DNA from: Promethearchaeota archaeon
GTDB taxonomy: Archaea; Asgardarchaeota; Lokiarchaeia; Sigyniarchaeales; SOKP01
Assembly (NCBI GenBank): GCA_013375475.1
Contig: JABXKD010000036.1
Span: forward strand, 1 to 36,218
Direction of reading: 5' to 3'
DNA length: 36,218 bases
The position numbers and the translations under genes are program-made. The notes beneath the pieces were generated by a model that worked only from the letters and a program-made list of their open reading frames with translations, was not told the origin of the DNA and made no database searches. This document shows positions 249 to 20,985 of this stretch, piece after piece. The first letter of the stretch is position 1; each line of letters starts with the position of its first letter.

Positions 249-521
249 TTACGTACTGAGCAATTTAAAGAGTATCGTAGCATGAGGGATATAAAATTGA
301 TCTTTAACCTTAATTACAACAGTATGAAAGTATTCAGCTAAACCTAAAAAACCCCTTATCACAGATTCATCCTCTTCGAACTTAAACACTACATTCGCTA
401 TTGCTGAGCTAGTACTAAAGTTGGCTTTTTCATATACCCTTTCATCGATTAAAGGAATTTTCAATTCATTTACGATCTCATATACACGCTTGATGAAGAG
501 TTCTCTTTTTGGAATATTCAC
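249..521 (-). CDS. small hypothetical protein (90 aa)
   Basis: Clean ORF with GTG start preceded by AGGTG; globular-looking composition; no motif recognised. Confidence 0.75.
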   Translation of the reverse strand: MNIPKRELFIKRVYEIVNELKIPLIDERVYEKANFSTSSAIANVVFKFEEDESVIRGFLGLAEYFHTVVIKVKDQFYIPHATILFKLLST

Positions 522-788: not shown

Positions 789-1493
789 TTGGTTTCGAAA
801 GAATATAAGAAGATGGAGAGAGTCATAAACTTTATGAAAAAAGGTTTAACATCCCTTTCTGACGATTTAGAAGAAACTGTAAAAGGGATTAACGATTTTA
901 AAAAATCTTTAAACAAAGCCTTGAAAGATTTGAAAGATGTCTCTATTGAACCAGAATTAAAAACTGTTAGCTCATCCTCTAAAAAAGTCGTAGGTGCTTC
1001 AACGGGACAAGCAAAAACTGCCGCCGCCAGTACTTTGTTTAATTTACTAAGTGGTAGCCCTGGAGCTGCACAACAAGCACCACCAACTGCTACTGCGAGC
1101 GCTTCACCTACGGTTGGTGGCCCTCCTAAATCGCCTGGAGCTGGCCCTCCAAAAAGACCTGCAAGTGGAGCACCTCCTAAAGCACCAGTCACGGGTGGAC
1201 CCCCTAGACGCTCTGATTTACCACCTGCACCAAAATTACCTCCTACTGCTGGAAGCGGTCCCCCTCAAGCACCAAATAAGGGATTGGTTCAAACACCATC
1301 ATTTGCTAAAAGACCAACTCCACCTGCAGCTCCTGCTATGGGTATTCCTGCAAGACCACCTGGCGCACCTACAACATCACCAGGAGTAGCGGCTCCATTA
1401 GCTGCACCTCAAGCTGGTGGTGGATTGAGTTCTTTACGCGACGAGATGTTAGAAGAATTGAATCGCTTAAAGAAAATAATGAGAGGAGATTAA
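789..1493 (+). CDS. proline-rich protein with N-terminal helical/coiled-coil region and C-terminal WH2/VASP-like helix
   Basis: N-terminal ~50 aa with heptad-like helical pattern; long P/A/G/S/T low-complexity region with GPP repeats; C-terminus GGGLSSLRDEMLEELNRLKKIMRGD. TTG start; followed by a T-rich tract. Confidence 0.8.
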   Translation: MVSKEYKKMERVINFMKKGLTSLSDDLEETVKGINDFKKSLNKALKDLKDVSIEPELKTVSSSSKKVVGASTGQAKTAAASTLFNLLSGSPGAAQQAPPTATASASPTVGGPPKSPGAGPPKRPASGAPPKAPVTGGPPRRSDLPPAPKLPPTAGSGPPQAPNKGLVQTPSFAKRPTPPAAPAMGIPARPPGAPTTSPGVAAPLAAPQAGGGLSSLRDEMLEELNRLKKIMRGD

Positions 1494-2356: not shown

Positions 2357-3289
2357 TTATCTAACCCAATACTGTTTTATTTTTATCTCTAAATCCGATT
2401 CAATAGGTTTAATATTATATGTTTTAGCATAATATTCTAAATCTGATAAAAAATCTTGTAACTTATACAATTTAGAATAAATTCTCACTTGTTTATCGTT
2501 TATAATCCCATTTCGACTAAGTGAGGCAATGGCATCAAAATCCGTCTTTATATTCTTTAAATCTCTAAAACTTAACTGAAAGTAATACTTTCCATGTTTT
2601 CGAATTTTAAACGGTACCCATAGCAGATACATTAAAATGATTCCCAGATTAAATTCGATTAATGTATTTACTAACATTGTTATCAAACTCCAACCACCTT
2701 GTTCTTGACGGATTCCTGAAACTGAAAGAGTAAATTCAAGAGCAAATTCAACTAACGTTCCTACCAAAAATAGATATAGGATATCTTCTAATCTTAGCTT
2801 TTTTTTATAATATAAAGCAGCTGCAATAATAATGTTGACAAGTACCATTATTAGTTCATTTAATCTTTGGTTTTCAACGTTCATATCTCTATATACTTCA
2901 ATTATTATATCGTTAAGAGGTAAAAGCTGGGATCCTACGGAAACTAGCGCCCAACCGATGTAAAATAGCATTGTCCAAAAAATCAACTCATTCCTATTTC
3001 TCTTTTCAAACATTACAATTACATATGAAAATTGGACAAATCCAGGTGAAATGCAGAACCACAAAAAGAAAAGAAAAGGGTCTAGAGGTCCAGTATAATG
3101 CCTTGTCTGAGTAATTAAATACCAATACACATAGTCTACGAAAATGTAAATTATCCAACCTAGTAATCCCCATTTAATTGGGGTCCAATACTTTCTCTTG
3201 ATTAAAAAAATTACCCAAATTGTTATAAAAAGTAGATCTAAGTAAATAAAATCAATTCCGATTGTTCTAGCTACAACTGCCTCTGTCAT
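2357..3289 (-). CDS. multi-pass membrane protein, unknown function
   Basis: About seven hydrophobic segments followed by a soluble C-terminal tail. Confidence 0.8.
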   Translation of the reverse strand: MTEAVVARTIGIDFIYLDLLFITIWVIFLIKRKYWTPIKWGLLGWIIYIFVDYVYWYLITQTRHYTGPLDPFLFFLWFCISPGFVQFSYVIVMFEKRNRNELIFWTMLFYIGWALVSVGSQLLPLNDIIIEVYRDMNVENQRLNELIMVLVNIIIAAALYYKKKLRLEDILYLFLVGTLVEFALEFTLSVSGIRQEQGGWSLITMLVNTLIEFNLGIILMYLLWVPFKIRKHGKYYFQLSFRDLKNIKTDFDAIASLSRNGIINDKQVRIYSKLYKLQDFLSDLEYYAKTYNIKPIESDLEIKIKQYWVR

Positions 3290-3501
3290 GGTAATTTATG
3301 AATTATTGCGTTTTTGTTGAAAAAATATTTAATACCTTATTAAATCCTTCAAAAGAAGTGAATAATGGAAAAAAGAGATGGAAATTGTTGAAATCAAAAT
3401 TAAAACTATTTTTAACCATCCGATATTATTAGGCTAAAAATAAATAGGTTAAATTGTTAATTTATCTAAAGAGGCATATAAGTAATTTGTCAGTTTAAGA
3501 A

Positions 3502-4614
3502 ATGAACCTTACTGTAGTATTAGATATTGGGCAATTTTCGGCTAAAGCAGGCTTCGGGGGGGAAGATATGCCATCTCAAGTTTTCTTCACAATCGTAGGA
3601 ACACCGAAATATAGGCAGATTGATTACGAATATGCGGGAATTAGAAAGGACGATTTTTATGTAGGAGACGAAATCCAATCAATAGGATTGTACAAAGTTT
3701 TTTACCCGATAAACAAAGGTATAATCCAAGACTGGCTTTCATTTGAGAAAATAATTGATTACATTTTTTACAATTTAAGAGTAGATCCGAGCTTGGTTAA
3801 TGTGTTATTTGCGGTACATCCTTTGTTTCCCCACAGCGATTTAAAGAAATTATTTGAATTATTCTTAGAAAAATATCAATGTAGAGCTTTTTATCCTGTC
3901 TTAGACTCTATGCTTACTTTATACGCCGGAGGTTTTCAAACGGGCTTAGTTGTAGAGATCGGAGATAGTCTTACAAGAATAACCCCCATCTATCAAGGAT
4001 ATAAACTAGACCATGCAATCAAGTATCTTGATATTGGTGGAAGAACCTTAACGAGGTTCATGGAAAAAATATTAGGTGAAAGAGGATTTGCGACTGACTC
4101 TTCAATTAGACGAGAACTCGTAAGAGCCTTAAAGGAAAAAGCGTGTTTTGTGTCTCTTGATTATAAAGAAGATTTGAAAAGAGTTGAACAATACGAAAAA
4201 GAATATTCCTTACCAGATGGATCAACAATTTCTTTAGCTAGAGAGAGGTTTGAAGTGCCTGAATTACTGTTCAATCCATCTATGGAATTGGAGGAAATAT
4301 CTCTCCCAGAGGCCATAATGGATGTAATTGAAATGTGCGACTTAGATGTTCGTCCAGATTTATTAAACAATATTTTTTTATCAGGAGGTTCTTCTATGTT
4401 TCCCAACATAAAATCTCGAATTTATCAAGAATTAGAAATTGAGCTAGCTCGCCGAAATAAAAAAAATCAAGTCATCAAAATAATTGCTCCCCGGGAACGT
4501 ATTTTCTCAGTTTGGGTTGGAGGATCGATCCTAGCGATGATCCCAGAATTTGAACAAAACTGGGTAACCAGAGCGAAATACTTCAATGAAGGCATTCCTG
4601 ACAACCTTCTATGA
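3502..4614 (+). CDS. actin-related protein (Asgard Arp-type actin homologue)
   Basis: Actin-family motifs throughout: VVLDIG..AKAGFGGED.P, YVGDE, YPINKGII.DW, TGLVVEIGD, GGRTLT, KEKACFVSLDY, YSLPDG, ERFEVPELLF.P, IFLSGGSSMFP, APRER.FSVWVGGSILA. Confidence 0.95.
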   Translation: MNLTVVLDIGQFSAKAGFGGEDMPSQVFFTIVGTPKYRQIDYEYAGIRKDDFYVGDEIQSIGLYKVFYPINKGIIQDWLSFEKIIDYIFYNLRVDPSLVNVLFAVHPLFPHSDLKKLFELFLEKYQCRAFYPVLDSMLTLYAGGFQTGLVVEIGDSLTRITPIYQGYKLDHAIKYLDIGGRTLTRFMEKILGERGFATDSSIRRELVRALKEKACFVSLDYKEDLKRVEQYEKEYSLPDGSTISLARERFEVPELLFNPSMELEEISLPEAIMDVIEMCDLDVRPDLLNNIFLSGGSSMFPNIKSRIYQELEIELARRNKKNQVIKIIAPRERIFSVWVGGSILAMIPEFEQNWVTRAKYFNEGIPDNLL

Positions 4615-5133: not shown

Positions 5134-7320
5134 TTAATTTCTTTTAACGCACTGCTCTTTAGAGATTTGAAAATTTTCGCAAGCAGAACAGAATCCATTT
5201 GTTCCTTCTTTAAAGCTATCGCTCCAACATTTTGGACAAATGTAATAGACAGTAGTTTTATTGTCCTTCTTTTTTAGGATTTTGAACACATTAAAACCGC
5301 ATTTTAAACACTTCGTAGATTTTAATATAGTAATCCTTCCAGTTTTTGGAACTGGAACATAAGTCTTGCAATTTCTATCTGAACACGCAAGAAATCTTTT
5401 CTTTTGAGAGGTTGTGACCAAATTCATGACATTTATTTTACAAGTTGGGCATTTAGAAGTAGTTTGAGGAAAATTTTTCTGCATAGGATTTTGTTGCATT
5501 GCTGTTTTTAAACTACTTTTCACACTATCGAATTGAAAAGTTATCAGATTTTTATTTTGGCGGAATTTATCAAATAAATCGAGGAATAGCTTTTTTACGA
5601 TACTTATCACATTATCCATTGTTTTTCTATTTTCTTTGACATCTTCGAGCAACTGCTCAACGAATCGGGTAAATTCTGGTTTTAAAAACGGTAGCCAGAC
5701 TTTGATTAATTCACTGATAAGAAATTTGCCCCATTCTGTTATTTTAAAGCGATTTTTAGCAACTCTATTTGTTAGTTTACGATCCACCAGAATATTAATT
5801 ATTGTAGGACGTGTGGATTTTGTTCCTAGATGTTCTCTCTCCATCAGTTTTAACAAAGTTGTATCTGTGTAATGTGGAGGTGGTTGCGTTTCTTTTTCTT
5901 CTAAAAAGATTTTTTTAACTGGAAGTTCCTTAGCTTGGATCTCAAATAATGGTTGATAAACCTTTTTCAAAAAAGGAGCGATTTCGTAAAATCCACTGTA
6001 AGTTAACGCTACGATTTGAGATGTAAATATTTCATTTTTAATTGATAATTTCAATTTGGTCCTTAATTCTTTAGCCTGTTCACCGAAGAGAGCTAAATAA
6101 TGTCGTGCTAAGAGATCATAGACCTTTTTCTCTAGATTATTTTCAAATTTTGGACTATTTTGTTCCAAGCTTACTAACGGAGTAATGGGCGGATGGTCTC
6201 CAGCGTTAACCTTACCTATTGTTGGATTCATTCGATTGTTTTTAAAAAGTTTAGTTGTGTATGATCCGTAGTTGGTGTGAGGTTTGAAATTTTCTAGGTA
6301 TAGTTTGTGGTCAAAATTCGAGTTGTATTTATCGCTGTCAGTTCTAGGATAAGAAATAATTTGATTCAAATAGAGTGAATTCATAGTGTTCATAGCAGCT
6401 TTGGCACTAATTCTTAATGTCTTAGTTAGTAATACAAGAGCTTTAGAAGTATTTAGGGGTGTTGGGGGATTGATTACTGCAGATTCTTTTATATTGTTTA
6501 ATATTATCGCTATTTTCTCATTTTTAATCTTTTGATATATCGATTTCGCTTCAGATTCTTTTTCTTTAGTAAAAGGATTTTTTGTATGCACAGCTTTAAT
6601 AACATGAGTTTTATATACAAGATTAGCGATAATTGTCCAATATGGTTCTGGTACAAATTGTTCTATCTCAAGGTCTCTTAAATAAATTAAATAGAGTAAA
6701 GAAGTTTGCACTCTACCAATTGAAACAAATTTATTGTTGATTTCGTCTAAAATGGGTTTAAATGTATTTGTTGCTTCTCTTGTGCTTGAAAAACCTATAA
6801 TTGCATCAATTATAGCTCTTGCTTCTCCTGATTCTCCCCAACTCCATCTCGGGGGAATTAATTTTCTATATTTCGAAACGATTTCTTTTTTTTCTAATGA
6901 ACTTAACCATAATTGGTTTACTTTTATATTTCTATTAGCCTTAGTTACAAAGGGTAAGGCGTCAAAAAGACCAATATTACAACCTTCTATGTCTGCATCG
7001 GTTGCAATCACGCATTCGTCGCAGATCTTAGAATATTCGGTTAAAGCATTGATGTAGGGTTTCGCATAACTTATAGCTACCTTGTCAATTGATTTTGGAT
7101 TTGTAATAATCTCCCTTGGATCCGTATATGTCCAGCTTTTATATTGCGCTGTATTTCTATATTCTAAAATATGTCCTCGAAGAGGGACAACATAAATATT
7201 CTTTGAAGGTATTTGATACACTTTTAGGTATTTATTTTTATTAATAACGATAACAGGTCCTAAAGCTTCTGCGATTTGTTTGGCAGCTTTATTTTTTTCA
7301 GAAATTATTAAACTCGGCAT
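5134..7320 (-). CDS. topA: DNA topoisomerase type IA (archaeal topo I/III) with C-terminal zinc ribbons
   Basis: TOPRIM IISEK and ATDADIEG, SIGRVQT, catalytic ISYPRTDS, HPPITP, LGTKSTR, and several CxxC pairs at the C-terminus. Confidence 0.95.
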   Translation of the reverse strand: MPSLIISEKNKAAKQIAEALGPVIVINKNKYLKVYQIPSKNIYVVPLRGHILEYRNTAQYKSWTYTDPREIITNPKSIDKVAISYAKPYINALTEYSKICDECVIATDADIEGCNIGLFDALPFVTKANRNIKVNQLWLSSLEKKEIVSKYRKLIPPRWSWGESGEARAIIDAIIGFSSTREATNTFKPILDEINNKFVSIGRVQTSLLYLIYLRDLEIEQFVPEPYWTIIANLVYKTHVIKAVHTKNPFTKEKESEAKSIYQKIKNEKIAIILNNIKESAVINPPTPLNTSKALVLLTKTLRISAKAAMNTMNSLYLNQIISYPRTDSDKYNSNFDHKLYLENFKPHTNYGSYTTKLFKNNRMNPTIGKVNAGDHPPITPLVSLEQNSPKFENNLEKKVYDLLARHYLALFGEQAKELRTKLKLSIKNEIFTSQIVALTYSGFYEIAPFLKKVYQPLFEIQAKELPVKKIFLEEKETQPPPHYTDTTLLKLMEREHLGTKSTRPTIINILVDRKLTNRVAKNRFKITEWGKFLISELIKVWLPFLKPEFTRFVEQLLEDVKENRKTMDNVISIVKKLFLDLFDKFRQNKNLITFQFDSVKSSLKTAMQQNPMQKNFPQTTSKCPTCKINVMNLVTTSQKKRFLACSDRNCKTYVPVPKTGRITILKSTKCLKCGFNVFKILKKKDNKTTVYYICPKCWSDSFKEGTNGFCSACENFQISKEQCVKRN

Positions 7321-7506: not shown

Positions 7507-9867
7507 CTATTTTGGTAGAACAAAACTAAATTTAGTACCCATGTCTATTCCTTTTGACTCAACCCAAATTTTTCCTCCATGAGCTTCGATAAATCCTCTT
7601 GTGATATACAGCCCTAATCCACTTCCTTTCTCTAGAGTAGAGTATCCATCAATGTCTTGTTCAATTGTAACGAATTTACTGAATATCTTTTGCATTTCTT
7701 CAGGTGTTAAACCTTTTCCGTTATCTTTTATGCTAAAAACGACACTTTGATCATCCTCTGTATATGATAATTCAATTTTCCCATATTTCGGAGTAAATTT
7801 GACAGCATTCGATAGAAGATTCAAAAAGACTTGTAAAATTCTGAAGTGATCTACTTTTAACATAAGATTTTCGGAGATGTCAAGGTTAATCGTTAGATGT
7901 TTCTGTTCAATTTGAAACTCTAAATCAGAAAGACAGCTAGTAATAATATCATGAACATTTTCTTCTCTTTTAACTAATTCAACTTTTTTCGCGTCTATTT
8001 TCATAACATCCAGCAACCGATTGATATACTCTTCTAAGCGATATGCATTATTCAAGACTCTGTTTAAATCTTCTTTTACTTCTAATTTCAATTCTTTTTC
8101 TCTTAGGAGAATTAGATCAATATAACCCCCGACAGAAATTAGTGGAGTTTTCAAATCGTGAGCCGCAATACTAATAAAATCTGTTTTCAATCGATCCAAC
8201 TCTTTCAATTCAATATTTTGTTCTCTTAATTTTCGTTCGGATTCTTTTAGTTTTTCTTCTGCTATTTTTTTTTCTGTAACATCTTGTATTATTATTTGAA
8301 TCATTTTTTGACCACTTATATTAATGCTAGATAGTTCAGATTCGGCCCAAATCAATTCTTTCTCTTTATTATATATTTCGGTAATTTGAGGCTTCCAAAT
8401 TGGATTATCTGGTTCCCCTTTAGAGATTAAATCCCGAACTAATCTTAACCCGGCTTTTGTTTCTTTAGGGAAGACTCCTTTGAGAGTTAAATAATTTTTA
8501 TCGATAATATCTTCTTTTTTGTATCCAAACAGTTCTGTAGTTTTTCTATTCATATCAACGATTTTACCATTATAATCCATAAGTACAATGCTAAATGGTG
8601 AATGCTCAAATAAATGTCGATATTTTTCTTCAGATTCTGATATTTTTATTTCAGCTCGTTTAGTATCCGTAATATCATTAAAAGTTACAGCAAAAAATCC
8701 TTTTTTAGGGGAATACCCTGATACTTTGTACCATCGATCGAGTGGTTCTGAATAATCTATTACATTTAAGGGAACTCCTGTGAGACCAACATTACCAAAC
8801 TTCCCTATCCAATTTGCAGGATCGTTTTCAATGCCTGGTAATATTTCGGTTACGGTTTTTCCGATTATTTCGCTTACTTTTAGTCCGGTCATTTCTTCAA
8901 ATTGACTATTGGCTTCAATAAATCTATAATCTATTGGTTTACCGCTATCATCTACTACTACTTCGTGATATGCAAATGCTGTATTCATATTTTCAAACAA
9001 GGAACGATATTTCTCTTCGGATTCTTTTAACCTTTCTTGAGCTCTTTTCTGTTTTGTAATATCCATAACAAGAGCTAAGTCTGCAAATTTATCTTGGTAA
9101 GAAATAGTTTTGCTGTAAGTTTCAATCCATTTTATATCTCCTTTTTTAGTTTTAATCCGGTAACAATCTGTATTAGGAAGAGTAATTTCTCCAGAAAGCT
9201 TTACTTTAAGATGATCTTTAGCTCTTTGCCGATCTTCGATATATATGTGGTTTATCATTTCGGTTGGAGTCCAATCCATTATCTCCTCTCTAGTATATCC
9301 ATTGATTTCAAACATCGCTTCGTTCGCGTACTTTATTTTTCCATCTTGGACGATTGTGATACCAATATCTGAATACTCAGTTATAGTCCTAAACATTTCT
9401 TCTGATTCTTTTAGCTTTTGCTCTGCTTTTTTACGTTCTGTTATATCTATAACTGAGATTAAATCGGCAGGTTTACCCATATAATCGATCGTTTTGGAAT
9501 AATTATCTAACCATCTAATTTCTCCGGATTTATTAATGATTCGATACTGATAGTTAGTTAAATAATCCTTCGCACCACTTTGTTTTTTTTGTAATTGTTC
9601 CAAAGCCCATATTCTATCTTTTGGATGAACGAAATCAAAAATTTCTGTTGGATTTAATTCTTTCGTCTCATCAACTGTAAATCCTGTTAAATCTGTAGAT
9701 TGCTTGTTGACAAACTTAATTCTATTATCTTGGATTATCACAATTCCCATTAGAGAGTTTTCTGCAATTGTTTTAAATTTTTCTTCTAAATCTTTAAGAT
9801 CTTTTGTACGTTCTTGTAATTTTTCTTCCAATTCTTTATTCAATGCCATTAGTTCTTCGTTAGACAT
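7507..9867 (-). CDS. cytoplasmic sensor histidine kinase with four PAS domains
   Basis: Four PAS/PAC repeats ending DITE/DITK/DITD/DVTE; H-box AAHDLKTPL; N-box NLLSNAVKF; G boxes DNGKG and GSGLGL; no transmembrane segment. GAAGGTG SD-like motif upstream. Confidence 0.95.
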   Translation of the reverse strand: MSNEELMALNKELEEKLQERTKDLKDLEEKFKTIAENSLMGIVIIQDNRIKFVNKQSTDLTGFTVDETKELNPTEIFDFVHPKDRIWALEQLQKKQSGAKDYLTNYQYRIINKSGEIRWLDNYSKTIDYMGKPADLISVIDITERKKAEQKLKESEEMFRTITEYSDIGITIVQDGKIKYANEAMFEINGYTREEIMDWTPTEMINHIYIEDRQRAKDHLKVKLSGEITLPNTDCYRIKTKKGDIKWIETYSKTISYQDKFADLALVMDITKQKRAQERLKESEEKYRSLFENMNTAFAYHEVVVDDSGKPIDYRFIEANSQFEEMTGLKVSEIIGKTVTEILPGIENDPANWIGKFGNVGLTGVPLNVIDYSEPLDRWYKVSGYSPKKGFFAVTFNDITDTKRAEIKISESEEKYRHLFEHSPFSIVLMDYNGKIVDMNRKTTELFGYKKEDIIDKNYLTLKGVFPKETKAGLRLVRDLISKGEPDNPIWKPQITEIYNKEKELIWAESELSSINISGQKMIQIIIQDVTEKKIAEEKLKESERKLREQNIELKELDRLKTDFISIAAHDLKTPLISVGGYIDLILLREKELKLEVKEDLNRVLNNAYRLEEYINRLLDVMKIDAKKVELVKREENVHDIITSCLSDLEFQIEQKHLTINLDISENLMLKVDHFRILQVFLNLLSNAVKFTPKYGKIELSYTEDDQSVVFSIKDNGKGLTPEEMQKIFSKFVTIEQDIDGYSTLEKGSGLGLYITRGFIEAHGGKIWVESKGIDMGTKFSFVLPK

Positions 9868-14937: not shown

Positions 14938-15909
14938 TTATGATTGTTGTTTGTTTGAGTCTAATTCTAAAATCGAATCTAATTTTAATTCAAAATCCTT
15001 TTTTAAATTTGCCAAGTCTTCTAGGGATTTATCAATGTTATTGATTAGAGAATCGATTGGAGCTTTTTTTAAATTTGTTATAAGATCAGATATAATTGAG
15101 AAATTATTTTTGAACGCATCTATAATGTTTTCTTTAATTAAACTCTTGTTGACATCAAACTCTTGAGCTTTTGTGAGATCCTTAATTTCCCTTAGTGGGA
15201 ATTCTTTGATTTCAGCTAATTTAACATTTTTTTTAATAATAGTTGGAGTAATTTTATTATGAAGGGTATTAGGATCGATTTCTTCTAAATTTATGACTAA
15301 GTAATCTAAATCCCCTTCATTTTTATTAATAGATTCTAAAAATTTCTTGGAAATTCCCGTGAATTCTTTTTGGTTGCTCTTTTTCTCGATTTTTTTCAAG
15401 AAATTGAAAATAACAAGAGTAAACGCCTCAGAAATATTATCCTGGGTTTTCGCTGATATAAAAATAATAGGAAAACCTTCGATCTGATATTGACGAATAT
15501 TATTTAAAAGAATTTCTGAATCTTCTGGTTTTATTAAATCAGATTTATTTCCTATTAAATAAGTTATACATTCTGGAGAGTGTTGAGATAAATTTTTCAT
15601 ATATGTTTGAATTAATTCTTGTAATGTTTCTTTAGGATTATCTAAGTCGAAAATTAACAAAGCTGAATCTAAATTACTAAAGAATACCGGGTTTAGGGGA
15701 TTAAAACTTCTTTGTCCCCCAATATCCCAAATATTTAATCTAATATGGTTAGATGATAAGTTATACTCCTTTCTGGCGATATTACTCCCAATTGTGGGAA
15801 TGTACATAGCGGGAAAGTCTTTTCCTATAAATGTATTTACAATCGAAGTTTTACCAACTCCCCATTGACCTAGTATAGCCAATTTAATATTGATTTCTGA
15901 GACAATCAT
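14938..15909 (-). CDS. Rab-like small GTPase with long C-terminal helical/coiled-coil extension
   Basis: G1 GQWGVGKT, G2 PTIG, G3 WDIGGQ, G4 NKSD, G5 SAK; about 150 aa helical tail; no CAAX/CC motif. Confidence 0.9.
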   Translation of the reverse strand: MIVSEINIKLAILGQWGVGKTSIVNTFIGKDFPAMYIPTIGSNIARKEYNLSSNHIRLNIWDIGGQRSFNPLNPVFFSNLDSALLIFDLDNPKETLQELIQTYMKNLSQHSPECITYLIGNKSDLIKPEDSEILLNNIRQYQIEGFPIIFISAKTQDNISEAFTLVIFNFLKKIEKKSNQKEFTGISKKFLESINKNEGDLDYLVINLEEIDPNTLHNKITPTIIKKNVKLAEIKEFPLREIKDLTKAQEFDVNKSLIKENIIDAFKNNFSIISDLITNLKKAPIDSLINNIDKSLEDLANLKKDFELKLDSILELDSNKQQS

Positions 15910-18353: not shown

Positions 18354-19838
18354 TTATAACATGTCGTGCTTTACAAACACATTTGCTGCTAATTCAAGGT
18401 CCTCAACAGTGAGAGGTCTAGCTAAGGTTTTTTGGAGTTCCGCTAAAAGTTGCTCACATAAATTTAAGGTTAACGAACTGCCTTGTTTTTCAATCAGTTG
18501 CTGGAGCATTAACGGAAATTCATCATCCTTCTCCTCCACGATTTCTAATGTAGGACGTTTTTCTTCTGAAATAACTTTATTTATATCAAGCGTAATATCT
18601 TCTTTATCTATTTCTTCCCCGTCTGAAGAATCATCTGTGGAAAATAACAATAAATCTTCTGTTTTTTGCTTAATCTTTGTGGGGGATCTAGGTATTTCTA
18701 TGGGGGGTGCTTTTATTAGCGCATTACTTGTTGGTAAGGGTTGTACTTGAATTCTTCGAGTAAATTGAATTTTCCCAGGGATTTCAAATTTCTTTTTTGC
18801 GTCAATTTCCTTTCTAATTTTAGCTTGTTCGTCAACTCTTTCTTGTAAACTCTCTATTTTATTCTTGAGAGTAGTCATATAAGTAAAGTCTTGATATTCA
18901 TTAGAAATTTTTATTAATCCCTTGTACTTGGCAATCGCAAGAACATCGTTTCCCTCACTTTCTACATTTTTAGCTTCGTTAAACAATTCTGTGAAATTGT
19001 GAGGGAGTAATTTTTTAAGATTCAGAACCTTAGCAACTAAATTTTTAATCTTTTCTTTCGCACCTGCGTCAATTAAAGATACTTCTTCAATATTCGAAAT
19101 GTTTAATTCGTTTTTAATTATCCTTATATCTTCTTGTCGAACTAAATCACGTTTATTACCAATAATTAAAAGTTTGGAGAATTTACTTTCTTGTTTTTGC
19201 AAATCTAAAAAGTGATTAATCACTCGTAAATGATAATTAGATAAGTCGAAAAGAAGAATAACTAAATCAGAACCTTGGATGAATTTAGACCACAAAAGCG
19301 AGAAATTATCTTTTAGTTCAAAATCCCATAAATCGAATCTTAAATTGTCGATAGAATAGATCGAAGCTGATGCAAAATTCATAATCGGACGAGCTCCATT
19401 ACTCTTAAACATGTTAAATAACATAGTCTTTCCTGAATTATGAGGGCCTACGATAGCGATTTTAGAGTGTAGTTCATATTGTTGCTCTCGTAAGAAATCT
19501 ACAAACTCTCTTTTAACGTTATTAGATGTATTTATATCCTCTGGTTTAGGAAATAACTCGTTAAATTTCCGAATAGTATTTTCGATAGTAGGCCCAACAT
19601 ACTCAATACTATCAACAAGATCGGTAATAAACAAAAAGAGCATGTCTTTGTCAGACCTGTGGAATATTTGAAAGTTTTCAGACACGGGTTTCTGGAAAGT
19701 TTTGCCTATCATAGGCATATCTATATAAGATTGAATGATTTTGATTACATTATTCAATTCATCGTCTCCAAGTGCAAGAGCATAAGTGTGATTATAGATG
19801 CAATCATTTTTATGAAAAATGTGAATTTGGCGAAGCAT
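18354..19838 (-). CDS. longin-like domain + degenerate small GTPase + helical/low-complexity C-terminal fusion protein
   Basis: G1 GPHNSGKT, G3 reads WDFE (no Gly), G4 NKRD; N-terminal ~120 aa has the beta-beta-alpha-beta-beta-beta-alpha-alpha pattern of longins (inference). Confidence 0.75.
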   Translation of the reverse strand: MLRQIHIFHKNDCIYNHTYALALGDDELNNVIKIIQSYIDMPMIGKTFQKPVSENFQIFHRSDKDMLFLFITDLVDSIEYVGPTIENTIRKFNELFPKPEDINTSNNVKREFVDFLREQQYELHSKIAIVGPHNSGKTMLFNMFKSNGARPIMNFASASIYSIDNLRFDLWDFELKDNFSLLWSKFIQGSDLVILLFDLSNYHLRVINHFLDLQKQESKFSKLLIIGNKRDLVRQEDIRIIKNELNISNIEEVSLIDAGAKEKIKNLVAKVLNLKKLLPHNFTELFNEAKNVESEGNDVLAIAKYKGLIKISNEYQDFTYMTTLKNKIESLQERVDEQAKIRKEIDAKKKFEIPGKIQFTRRIQVQPLPTSNALIKAPPIEIPRSPTKIKQKTEDLLLFSTDDSSDGEEIDKEDITLDINKVISEEKRPTLEIVEEKDDEFPLMLQQLIEKQGSSLTLNLCEQLLAELQKTLARPLTVEDLELAANVFVKHDML

Positions 19839-20025: not shown

Positions 20026-20985
20026 ATGCCGCTAGAACCAGAACATATCGACAAATTCTTAGAAGAAGAAATCGATACTAAGATTAAAACAGAATTGTTA
20101 GAACTTTTAAAAAAAAGAATTGACAATTTATGTTTTAAAGAGTGCGAAATCGATAGAATCCAGTGTACGTTAACTCCACTTTGCACTCGTAGAACATTAT
20201 TAAAACTTCGGTTATTAAATGGGCTTACGATAGAAGATCAGCCTAAATTCTGTTATAGCGTTCATAAAAACATTATTTTTCGAGATTTCCGAAATAAAAC
20301 GGTAATTTACAAACCTAATGATGCATATTTGTATTTAGTAGATTTTTTTGATGTATTCTTCCACGGTGATTACAGAAAACTAAATAAATTTTTCTCCAAG
20401 CAAGATTTTAAAGGAGCCAAAAAAATTTTTGAAGATAGAATTAATAATAGGGAAGAAAATTTTCAATATCTTTTAACTAAGAATAAGAATTTTATGATCT
20501 TTAAGTACGACGAAAAAATCCATGTCTGCTTTATTATTGAAAATTATGCTCTTTGTAACGCGAACAGAGAAAATATTTCTAATCTGGAATTATTATTTGG
20601 ATTATGCAAATTATTTGCAAAGATATATTTTCCAGAAGTTAAGTTAAAACTAAACCATTCTAATTGCGTTGAAATAAAAACTTTTATCCCAAAAGATGCT
20701 CTTTTAAAAATTAGCAAAACACCTCCTACGGATGAAGATTCTAAAAGCGATAACTATATTTGGAATGTATTTCCTGGAGAATTAGACGCGTTAAGCCAAT
20801 TTTGTAAGGAAATTAATATATATATAGATTCAAAAGAAAACTTAGCAATAAAACTAAATATTGGTGTCGTACCAGAAGTTCGCATGAATAAAAATTCGAA
20901 TGCTTTGTTGAGGTATCGAGATTTACGATTAGTTTTCAATATTATATATCGATTGTATAATGATTTCTATATCTTGCATGTATAA
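20026..20985 (+). CDS. hypothetical protein with N-terminal Cys cluster
   Basis: Long ORF; CFKECEIDRIQCTLTPLC...FCYSVH; no family recognised. Confidence 0.8.
   Translation: MPLEPEHIDKFLEEEIDTKIKTELLELLKKRIDNLCFKECEIDRIQCTLTPLCTRRTLLKLRLLNGLTIEDQPKFCYSVHKNIIFRDFRNKTVIYKPNDAYLYLVDFFDVFFHGDYRKLNKFFSKQDFKGAKKIFEDRINNREENFQYLLTKNKNFMIFKYDEKIHVCFIIENYALCNANRENISNLELLFGLCKLFAKIYFPEVKLKLNHSNCVEIKTFIPKDALLKISKTPPTDEDSKSDNYIWNVFPGELDALSQFCKEINIYIDSKENLAIKLNIGVVPEVRMNKNSNALLRYRDLRLVFNIIYRLYNDFYILHV

Follow-up and report, generated by a model that had tools for sequence, protein, structure and literature searches.

The described systems closest to the one treated here are small proteins that dock onto actin-family proteins and the tails of the ESCRT machinery (endosomal sorting complexes required for transport). 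Arcadin-2 was found to dock with its last 17 residues into crenactin's hydrophobic groove, and ParR was described as acting likewise on ParM (PMC5173319). In the published sources consulted, profilins and gelsolins are the only established actin regulators of Asgard archaea (10.1101/2025.11.30.690169; PMC12050087), WH2-like motifs have been described in these organisms only inside gelsolins (PMC9433394; 10.1101/2025.11.30.690169), and ESCRT-III tails are the only ligands described for the Asgard Vps4 MIT domain (PMC7240154). The present analysis concerns a gene at 789..1493 (+ strand) of a 36,218-nucleotide stretch, hereafter the window, that corresponds to positions 1 to 36,218 of contig JABXKD010000036.1 (assembly GCA_013375475.1) of a Promethearchaeota archaeon of the class Lokiarchaeia, order Sigyniarchaeales. 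Its 234-residue product, here called the adaptor, carries at its C-terminus a short, nearly invariant helix at the end of a long proline-rich arm, and in all likelihood belongs to a hitherto undescribed family of tethered docking-helix adaptors that extends across the Asgard archaea.

In an alignment of 121 sequences (the query and 120 homologues), with conservation expressed for each region as the average fraction of the most frequent residue, the tail reached 0.98, followed by the second helix (0.90), the N-terminal helix (0.87), the spacer (0.71) and the arm (0.66). A first-pass annotation of the window, made from the letters alone, had located the tail GGGLSSLRDEMLEELNRLKKIMRGD at 1416-1490, a position that proved correct, and had anticipated that roughly the last 25 residues would be kept while the linker drifted, exactly the pattern seen between tail and arm. 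By pattern match the tail was present in 119 of the 121 proteins, as only 10 distinct 26-mers, and in a 20-sequence alignment covering four families of the order (f1 to f4; alignment A1) 13 of its positions were invariant, namely L216, R217, E219, M220, L221, E223, L224, R226, L227, K228, I230, M231 and G233.

The family is widespread and nameless. At E<=0.01 a word-indexed search yielded 203 homologues; the top 120 are 185-247 residues long, 53-93% identical and annotated as hypothetical wherever they are named. When whole genomes were searched, 37 of 41 relatives gave a match, as did 230 of 400 genomes from the phylum when alignment A1 served as query. Within its own class, matches with A1 were obtained in 119/134 genomes of f1, 14/14 of f2, 1/1 of f3, 4/4 of f4 and 7/7 of f5-f7 taken together; in other classes, they were obtained in 16/19 genomes of f19, 5/5 of f20 and 4/4 of f27, with partial occurrence in many further families. 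The whole protein matched no Pfam family and no NCBIfam family above cut-off, and a sequence search of the PDB returned nothing related, its sole match standing at E 2. When the PDB sequences were searched with the tail profile, the best match was a lectin neck repeat (E 0.04), with none of the matches being related to actin or ESCRT and no VASP chain among them. In the titles, abstracts and passages offered by full-text literature searches, no description of the adaptor family was found.

The end helix also occurs on other proteins. An exhaustive profile search over 1.84 billion representatives yielded 64 proteins at E<=0.001, several of which align through the tail alone. In single-pass membrane proteins that also have a coiled coil (L061, L063, P0180 and P0184), the motif comes after a proline-rich stretch, and it was found as well on multipass membrane proteins (P0185 and P0188) and on a small zinc-finger protein (P0187). 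In addition, it occurs on proteins in which Pfam recognizes a Ras/Roc-type GTPase, followed by a zinc ribbon of the CxxC...CCxC type (P0164, and L031 at 3370-4560 on the - strand of genome G037), and as two to three tandem copies placed before the same zinc ribbon (P0167, P0169, P0179 and P0183); some members of this motif-zinc-ribbon group end in an extra C-terminal domain of unassigned family. The sequences thus gathered indicate that the end helix is portable, a short motif which in the course of evolution has become attached to many different anchors. In the genome under study the adaptor gene is its only carrier, scoring 58.8 and 52.7 bits with the motif profiles, with the next best protein at 8.3-8.8 bits, and a single match to the tail profile was likewise obtained in three complete f2 genomes. 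The genome's own GTPase-zinc-ribbon protein (a 260-residue frame on contig C88) lacks the docking motif. A scan for longer proteins bearing the tail region scored none of 48 candidates, which is weak evidence.

The layout of the adaptor was examined with an AlphaFold2 model built on alignment A1, in which three helices are predicted and the rest is coil, the predicted template modelling score (pTM) being 0.21. The first is a long helix formed by residues 4-49 (798..935, + strand; blocks with a predicted local distance difference test score, pLDDT, of 81-93), where the heptad a and d positions are hydrophobic in a proportion of 0.92 versus 0.13 at the other positions. From this pattern, the N-terminal helix is probably a coiled-coil assembly element that pairs the protein into an oligomer. 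The second is a short helix of residues 73-87, AKTAAASTLFNLLSG (1005..1049, +; block pLDDT 55-62), whose residues A79, A80, L83 and L87 are invariant in A1. It is followed by a 125-residue arm (1050..1412, +; coil, block pLDDT 42-68), predicted to be disordered, with repeats of the GPPK type and a composition of 35 Pro, 24 Ala, 18 Gly, 10 Ser and 9 Thr (28% Pro, 19% Ala and 14% Gly). The arm drifts in sequence and in length, as seen from its gapped columns in A1, and holds two kept motifs: LPPAPKLPP (residues 144-152; 1218..1244, +), in which P145, P148, P151 and P152 are invariant and L144 and K149 are shared by at least 90% of the sequences of A1, and PSFAKRP (residues 170-176; 1296..1316, +), in which P176 is invariant in A1 and which is also kept in the 121-sequence alignment. 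The protein ends in the putative docking helix with its glycine hinge (residues 209-234; 1413..1490, +; block pLDDT up to 91). The helix itself comprises 19 residues (213-231) and is amphipathic, with residues 213, 216, 220, 224, 227 and 231 on its hydrophobic face. The predicted helices, the heptad pattern and the composition of the arm all agree with the architecture read by the first-pass annotation, that is, an N-terminal coiled coil, a proline-rich linker and a terminal helix. In the arrangement proposed here, the end helix would dock onto a cytoplasmic protein of very high conservation, the coiled coil would render this docking multivalent, and the N-terminal part would act together with the product of a neighbouring gene, a 90-residue protein described below.

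The open reading frame is a genuine protein-coding gene. It starts with TTG at 789, with an alternative in-frame ATG at 813, and stops at 1491-1493; the former is the likelier start, because the residues MVSKEYKK encoded upstream of the ATG are kept as protein among the homologues, many of which begin with ATG. Comparison with 19 relatives of the genus revealed 214 nucleotide differences in the last 24 codons, distributed over codon positions 1, 2 and 3 as 30, 0 and 184, and the 45 N-terminal codons differed at the same positions 119, 63 and 360 times. This distribution indicates that the + frame of 789-1493 is under purifying selection, and the opposite-strand open reading frame at 731-1192 (153 codons) is therefore a shadow of the adaptor gene. 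Contigs from four RNA libraries, which come from three studies, span 753-1569, one single contig of 734 bases covering 753-1486; since they are 88-99% alike they were assigned to relatives, and they attest to presence in RNA libraries and give neither strand nor level. No such contig was found in the four runs over 506-752 or past 1577, although holes in contig data prove nothing.

It could be asked whether the adaptor belongs to a known class of actin regulators, as the first-pass annotation had supposed when it compared the tail to WH2 and Ena/VASP elements. WH2 motifs consist of a short amphipathic helix, a non-helical linker and then an extended LKK[TV] motif. In layout the adaptor resembles the Ena/VASP and WH2 regulators: a coiled coil that would oligomerise is combined with a region rich in proline and with a short helical element that looks like an actin site, and the two to three tandem copies of the motif in some of its relatives are reminiscent of WH2 arrays. 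The order of its parts is the reverse of that found in VASP. In the AlphaFold2 prediction the tail forms a single helix without a break from 213 to 231, LKKI included, with no Gly or Pro between helix and LKKI. The last 54 residues matched no Pfam family at E<=10, and thus not WH2 (PF02205), bearing in mind that the HMMER filters drop most weak matches, and no EVH1 or VASP tetramerisation family was found on the adaptor at E<=1. In addition, LKKI is kept within the order but is replaced in other classes by IKEI, LKAL, LKKL, LKKF or LRDI, the LKK motif not being conserved outside Lokiarchaeia. With no Pfam or PDB match, a continuous helix and a variable LKKI site, the supposed WH2 or Ena/VASP membership is not supported, and the tail cannot be shown to be an element of WH2 or VASP type.

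Which protein might then receive the end helix? The favoured candidate, put forward tentatively and by analogy, is Lokiactin, the main actin of Asgard archaea, through its hydrophobic groove. The adaptor would in that case collect, sequester or hand over actin subunits, and its cousins, anchored in membranes or borne on GTPases, would link these membranes and switches to actin. Lokiactin is 88-92% identical across f1-f4, where the tail is invariant, and 71-80% identical in other classes; its stretches Y150-G157 and S345-F359, which we take, by analogy with eukaryotic actin, to line the groove, were invariant in the comparison. The MIT domain of Vps4 is by comparison only 30-42% identical to that of f2 and f4, with a variable third helix, and genuine ESCRT-III tails drift even within f1. 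Judged by these identities, the invariance of the tail would fit Lokiactin better than the MIT domain. A parallel is offered by the published description of arcadin-2 of Pyrobaculum calidifontis, which is likewise small and non-enzymatic, works through a conserved C-terminal helix and is encoded near an actin-family gene; together with ParR it shows that docking of such a helix in the groove of an actin-fold protein is established in archaea and bacteria. Unlike arcadin-2 and ParR, the adaptor carries a coiled-coil head as well as a long arm rich in proline, and its gene is linked to an actin gene in f1 only, and to a paralogue. In its widest form, the actin proposal would make the end helix an ancestral portable groove-binding helix, the actin-handling peptide of Asgard archaea, serving as a VASP- or arcadin-like assembly or sequestering factor when borne on a coiled-coil proline arm, and wiring membranes and switches to Lokiactin when placed on membrane proteins, on Ras-like GTPases or in tandem arrays; this broad version we regard as doubtful.

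Several observations weigh against Lokiactin as the receptor. Conservation of the tail alone would fit any very conserved receptor, and neither Pfam nor the PDB sequences searched with the tail profile gave a match to WH2 or any other actin-binding family. The main text of a Lokiactin co-immunoprecipitation study names gelsolins, a profilin and an Arf GTPase, and no adaptor-like protein (10.1101/2025.11.30.690169). Family f25 keeps an actin 52-54% identical to Lokiactin, and in its five genomes neither the motif (0/5) nor an MIT match (0/5) was found; the same genomes (G292-G296, 75-83% complete) gave no match to the 90-residue partner either. The genomic link is weak. The first-pass annotation had pointed to a co-oriented actin homologue downstream of the adaptor gene, and such a gene is indeed present at 3502-4614 (+ strand; Pfam Actin, E 5.1e-89, 293 bits). 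The genome has four actin-family genes, and the Lokiactin-type one lies on another contig and scores 442 bits, against 293 for the gene at 3502-4614, whose product is 41% identical to the genome's Lokiactin; these figures mark the neighbour as a paralogue and not as Lokiactin. In 40 of 45 f1 loci (11 genomes being counted twice) the adaptor gene has an actin paralogue downstream at a distance of at most 1.5 kb, and in none of the 12 loci of f2-f4, the linkage being a trait of f1 only. The neighbourhood that had been read as a link to actin thus holds as a recurrent arrangement of f1, and falls short in involving a paralogue and in not extending to the other families. The actin-regulator proposal as a whole is supported only in part: the architecture and the conservation of the tail speak for it, and the failed WH2/VASP membership and the f1-limited linkage speak against it.

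The profile of ESCRT-III MIM1 tails also counts against actin, in that it ranks the adaptor tail second among the 4399 C-termini of the genome and so points to Vps4. This brings forward the alternative that the end helix is a MIM1-type motif and the adaptor a partner or regulator that docks onto the N-terminal MIT domain of Vps4 or onto other MIT-like modules; the coiled coil would then give it two or more arms, and those cousins that are anchored in membranes would bring Vps4 there. MIM1 motifs are amphipathic C-terminal helices with the spacing Leu-x-x-x-Leu-x-x-Leu-Lys/Arg. In the adaptor M220, L224, L227 and K228 fit this spacing, with the consensus Arg replaced by Glu as in the genome's ESCRT-III tails, and, as with MIM1 tails, the helix is amphipathic, follows a flexible proline-rich stretch and lies at the extreme C-terminus. 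The ESCRT-III proteins of the genome end in ...KELEDELNKLKSRD and ...KLEDEIDKLRKELEGS, which share E-[LI]-[ND]-[KR]-L-[KR] with the tail, the wider core E-[LM]-x-x-E-[LI]-x-[KR]-L-K being common to the adaptor and Asgard ESCRT-III. The ranking was obtained with a profile of 15 distinct Vps4-adjacent ESCRT-III tails from 20 relatives, ESCRT-III itself coming first, and in ungapped BLOSUM comparisons of ESCRT-III tails with the adaptor tail the ranks were 7, 8 and 34 of 4399. Asgard tails of the Vps2/24/46 class have been described as MIM1-like (PMC7240154). The joint absence of MIT match and motif in f25 agrees with this alternative, as does the presence in the genome of two giant proteins in which MIT-like modules are arrayed in tandem. 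The latter (G000:C226 from base 20377, +, 1645 residues; G000:C286 from base 5866, +, 1615 residues) are soluble, with about 15 tandem MIT-like/TPR-hairpin modules, Lys/Glu-rich coiled-coil linkers between modules and sub-threshold matches to PF04212; it is possible that they are multivalent receptors for MIM1-like helices.

The same comparison has a weak side, the second-ranked match amounting to only 7.6 bits (E 1.2). Conversely, the motif profile scores the ESCRT-III tails of relatives at no more than 9.1 bits, and the genome's own two ESCRT-III open reading frames were not among its matches at E<=200. Compared with MIM1 tails, the adaptor helix is longer and far more conserved, staying invariant across families in which the identity of the MIT domain is 30-42%, and its additional invariant residues L216, R217, M220, I230 and M231, which are its hallmark, are missing from ESCRT-III tails. 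The adaptor has no Snf7 core (PF03357), the two Snf7 genes of the genome lying elsewhere. No co-variation was found between tail and ESCRT-III tail of the same genome across 17 genomes, where 11,697 of 100,000 permutations reached the observed sum; a hint of it from six genomes (18 of 720 permutations) was not upheld. Finally, MIT was present and the motif not found in f24 (7/7 versus 0/7) and f14 (3/3 versus 0/3), with f15 nearly so (12/12 versus 1/12), although the distribution of MIT does not discriminate, because the domain is near-universal (330/400 genomes). The first-pass annotation had mentioned an ESCRT-type MIT-interacting tail only as an alternative; with the rank of 2nd among 4399 in its favour and the 7.6 bits against it, it is at least as alive as actin, though we hold it, too, to be rather unlikely.

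A stronger candidacy, yet still short of probable, can be given to some other highly conserved cytoplasmic protein, for example of a GTPase system, of translation, a chaperone or a non-actin cytoskeletal protein, in which case the resemblance to actin-binding and MIT-binding helices would be one that is generic to amphipathic helices rich in Glu, Leu and Lys. The variable positions 218, 222, 225, 229 and 232 form one stripe of the helix, so that invariance extends over roughly three quarters of the circumference, a surface that exceeds the needs of a simple groove contact. Moreover, several proteins carry the motif next to modules of the Ras-like GTPase and zinc-ribbon kinds, and the neighbourhoods of f2-f4 contain no cytoskeletal or ESCRT hint. 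Speaking against it, no positive candidate emerged, and the 90-residue neighbour was ruled out as universal receptor. It may also be imagined that there is no separate receptor at all, the helix associating with itself as a short coiled coil, folding back on the N-terminal helix or binding membrane, as its amphipathic character and the heptad nature of the N-terminal helix would allow. We judge this very improbable: the AlphaFold2 model (pTM 0.21) has no contact between helices, the invariance of the charged residues R217, E219, E223, R226 and K228 would be unusual for a lipid-binding helix, and the motif occurs on unrelated anchors that have no N-terminal helix.

Divergent to the adaptor gene lies the gene of the conserved 90-residue protein (249..521, - strand), its steady companion across several Asgard classes, which adjoins it in f1 and f3. 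In f19, which belongs to another class, the two genes are adjacent but convergent, in f27 they are 1.7 kb apart, and in f2 they are unlinked. A profile of the 90-residue protein matched 181 of 400 genomes, in the same lineages as the form of the adaptor that has the N-terminal helix, and 410 homologues were obtained at E<=0.001, of which the 120 listed are 72-99% identical and called hypothetical where named. RNA-library contigs span 222-504 over the gene. The AlphaFold2 model has an alpha/beta fold (pLDDT 90, pTM 0.81), and no Pfam or NCBIfam family and no named family from Atlas were assigned to the protein. Compared with solved folds, the model gave no match, the best Foldseek hit to the PDB being at E 0.16 and the best VIA-align wide score Z 4.3. 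The protein was considered as a universal receptor of the tail and ruled out, because it was not found in six motif-carrying families (f9, f11, f13, f16, f18 and f28), in which only membrane-anchored bearers of the motif occur. It probably works with the N-terminal head of the adaptor.

Downstream of the adaptor gene lie a gene for a PIG-L-type deacetylase (1608-2354), through which the actin paralogue is linked to the adaptor gene in f1, and one for a membrane protein (2357-3289, -). In f2-f4 no recurrent informative neighbour was found, the adjoining genes including those for adenylosuccinate synthetase, a DNA methylase and molybdenum-cofactor functions and, once, a Ras GTPase with an ICMT-like methyltransferase. 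Further along the window, two genes for Ras/Arf-family small GTPases (14938-15909 and 18354-19838, both -) encode proteins of 323 and 494 residues with long extra regions and no docking motif, and 7507-9867 (-) encodes a 786-residue multi-PAS sensor histidine kinase with PAS folds, HisKA and HATPase_c.

In summary, the adaptor is a single-copy protein that is present in most of the searched genomes of its class and bears no family name. Its 19-residue helix is nearly frozen and has been reused by other lineages on membrane proteins and GTPases, and it therefore provides a cheap-to-test handle on eukaryote-like cytoskeleton or membrane remodelling, a 25-residue peptide being sufficient as bait for the partner. 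The conserved 90-residue neighbour, with no recognised fold, is a second uncharacterised protein tied to the adaptor. Should the actin proposal be true in its widest form, it would add to profilins and gelsolins a third class of actin regulators in the archaea most closely related to eukaryotes.

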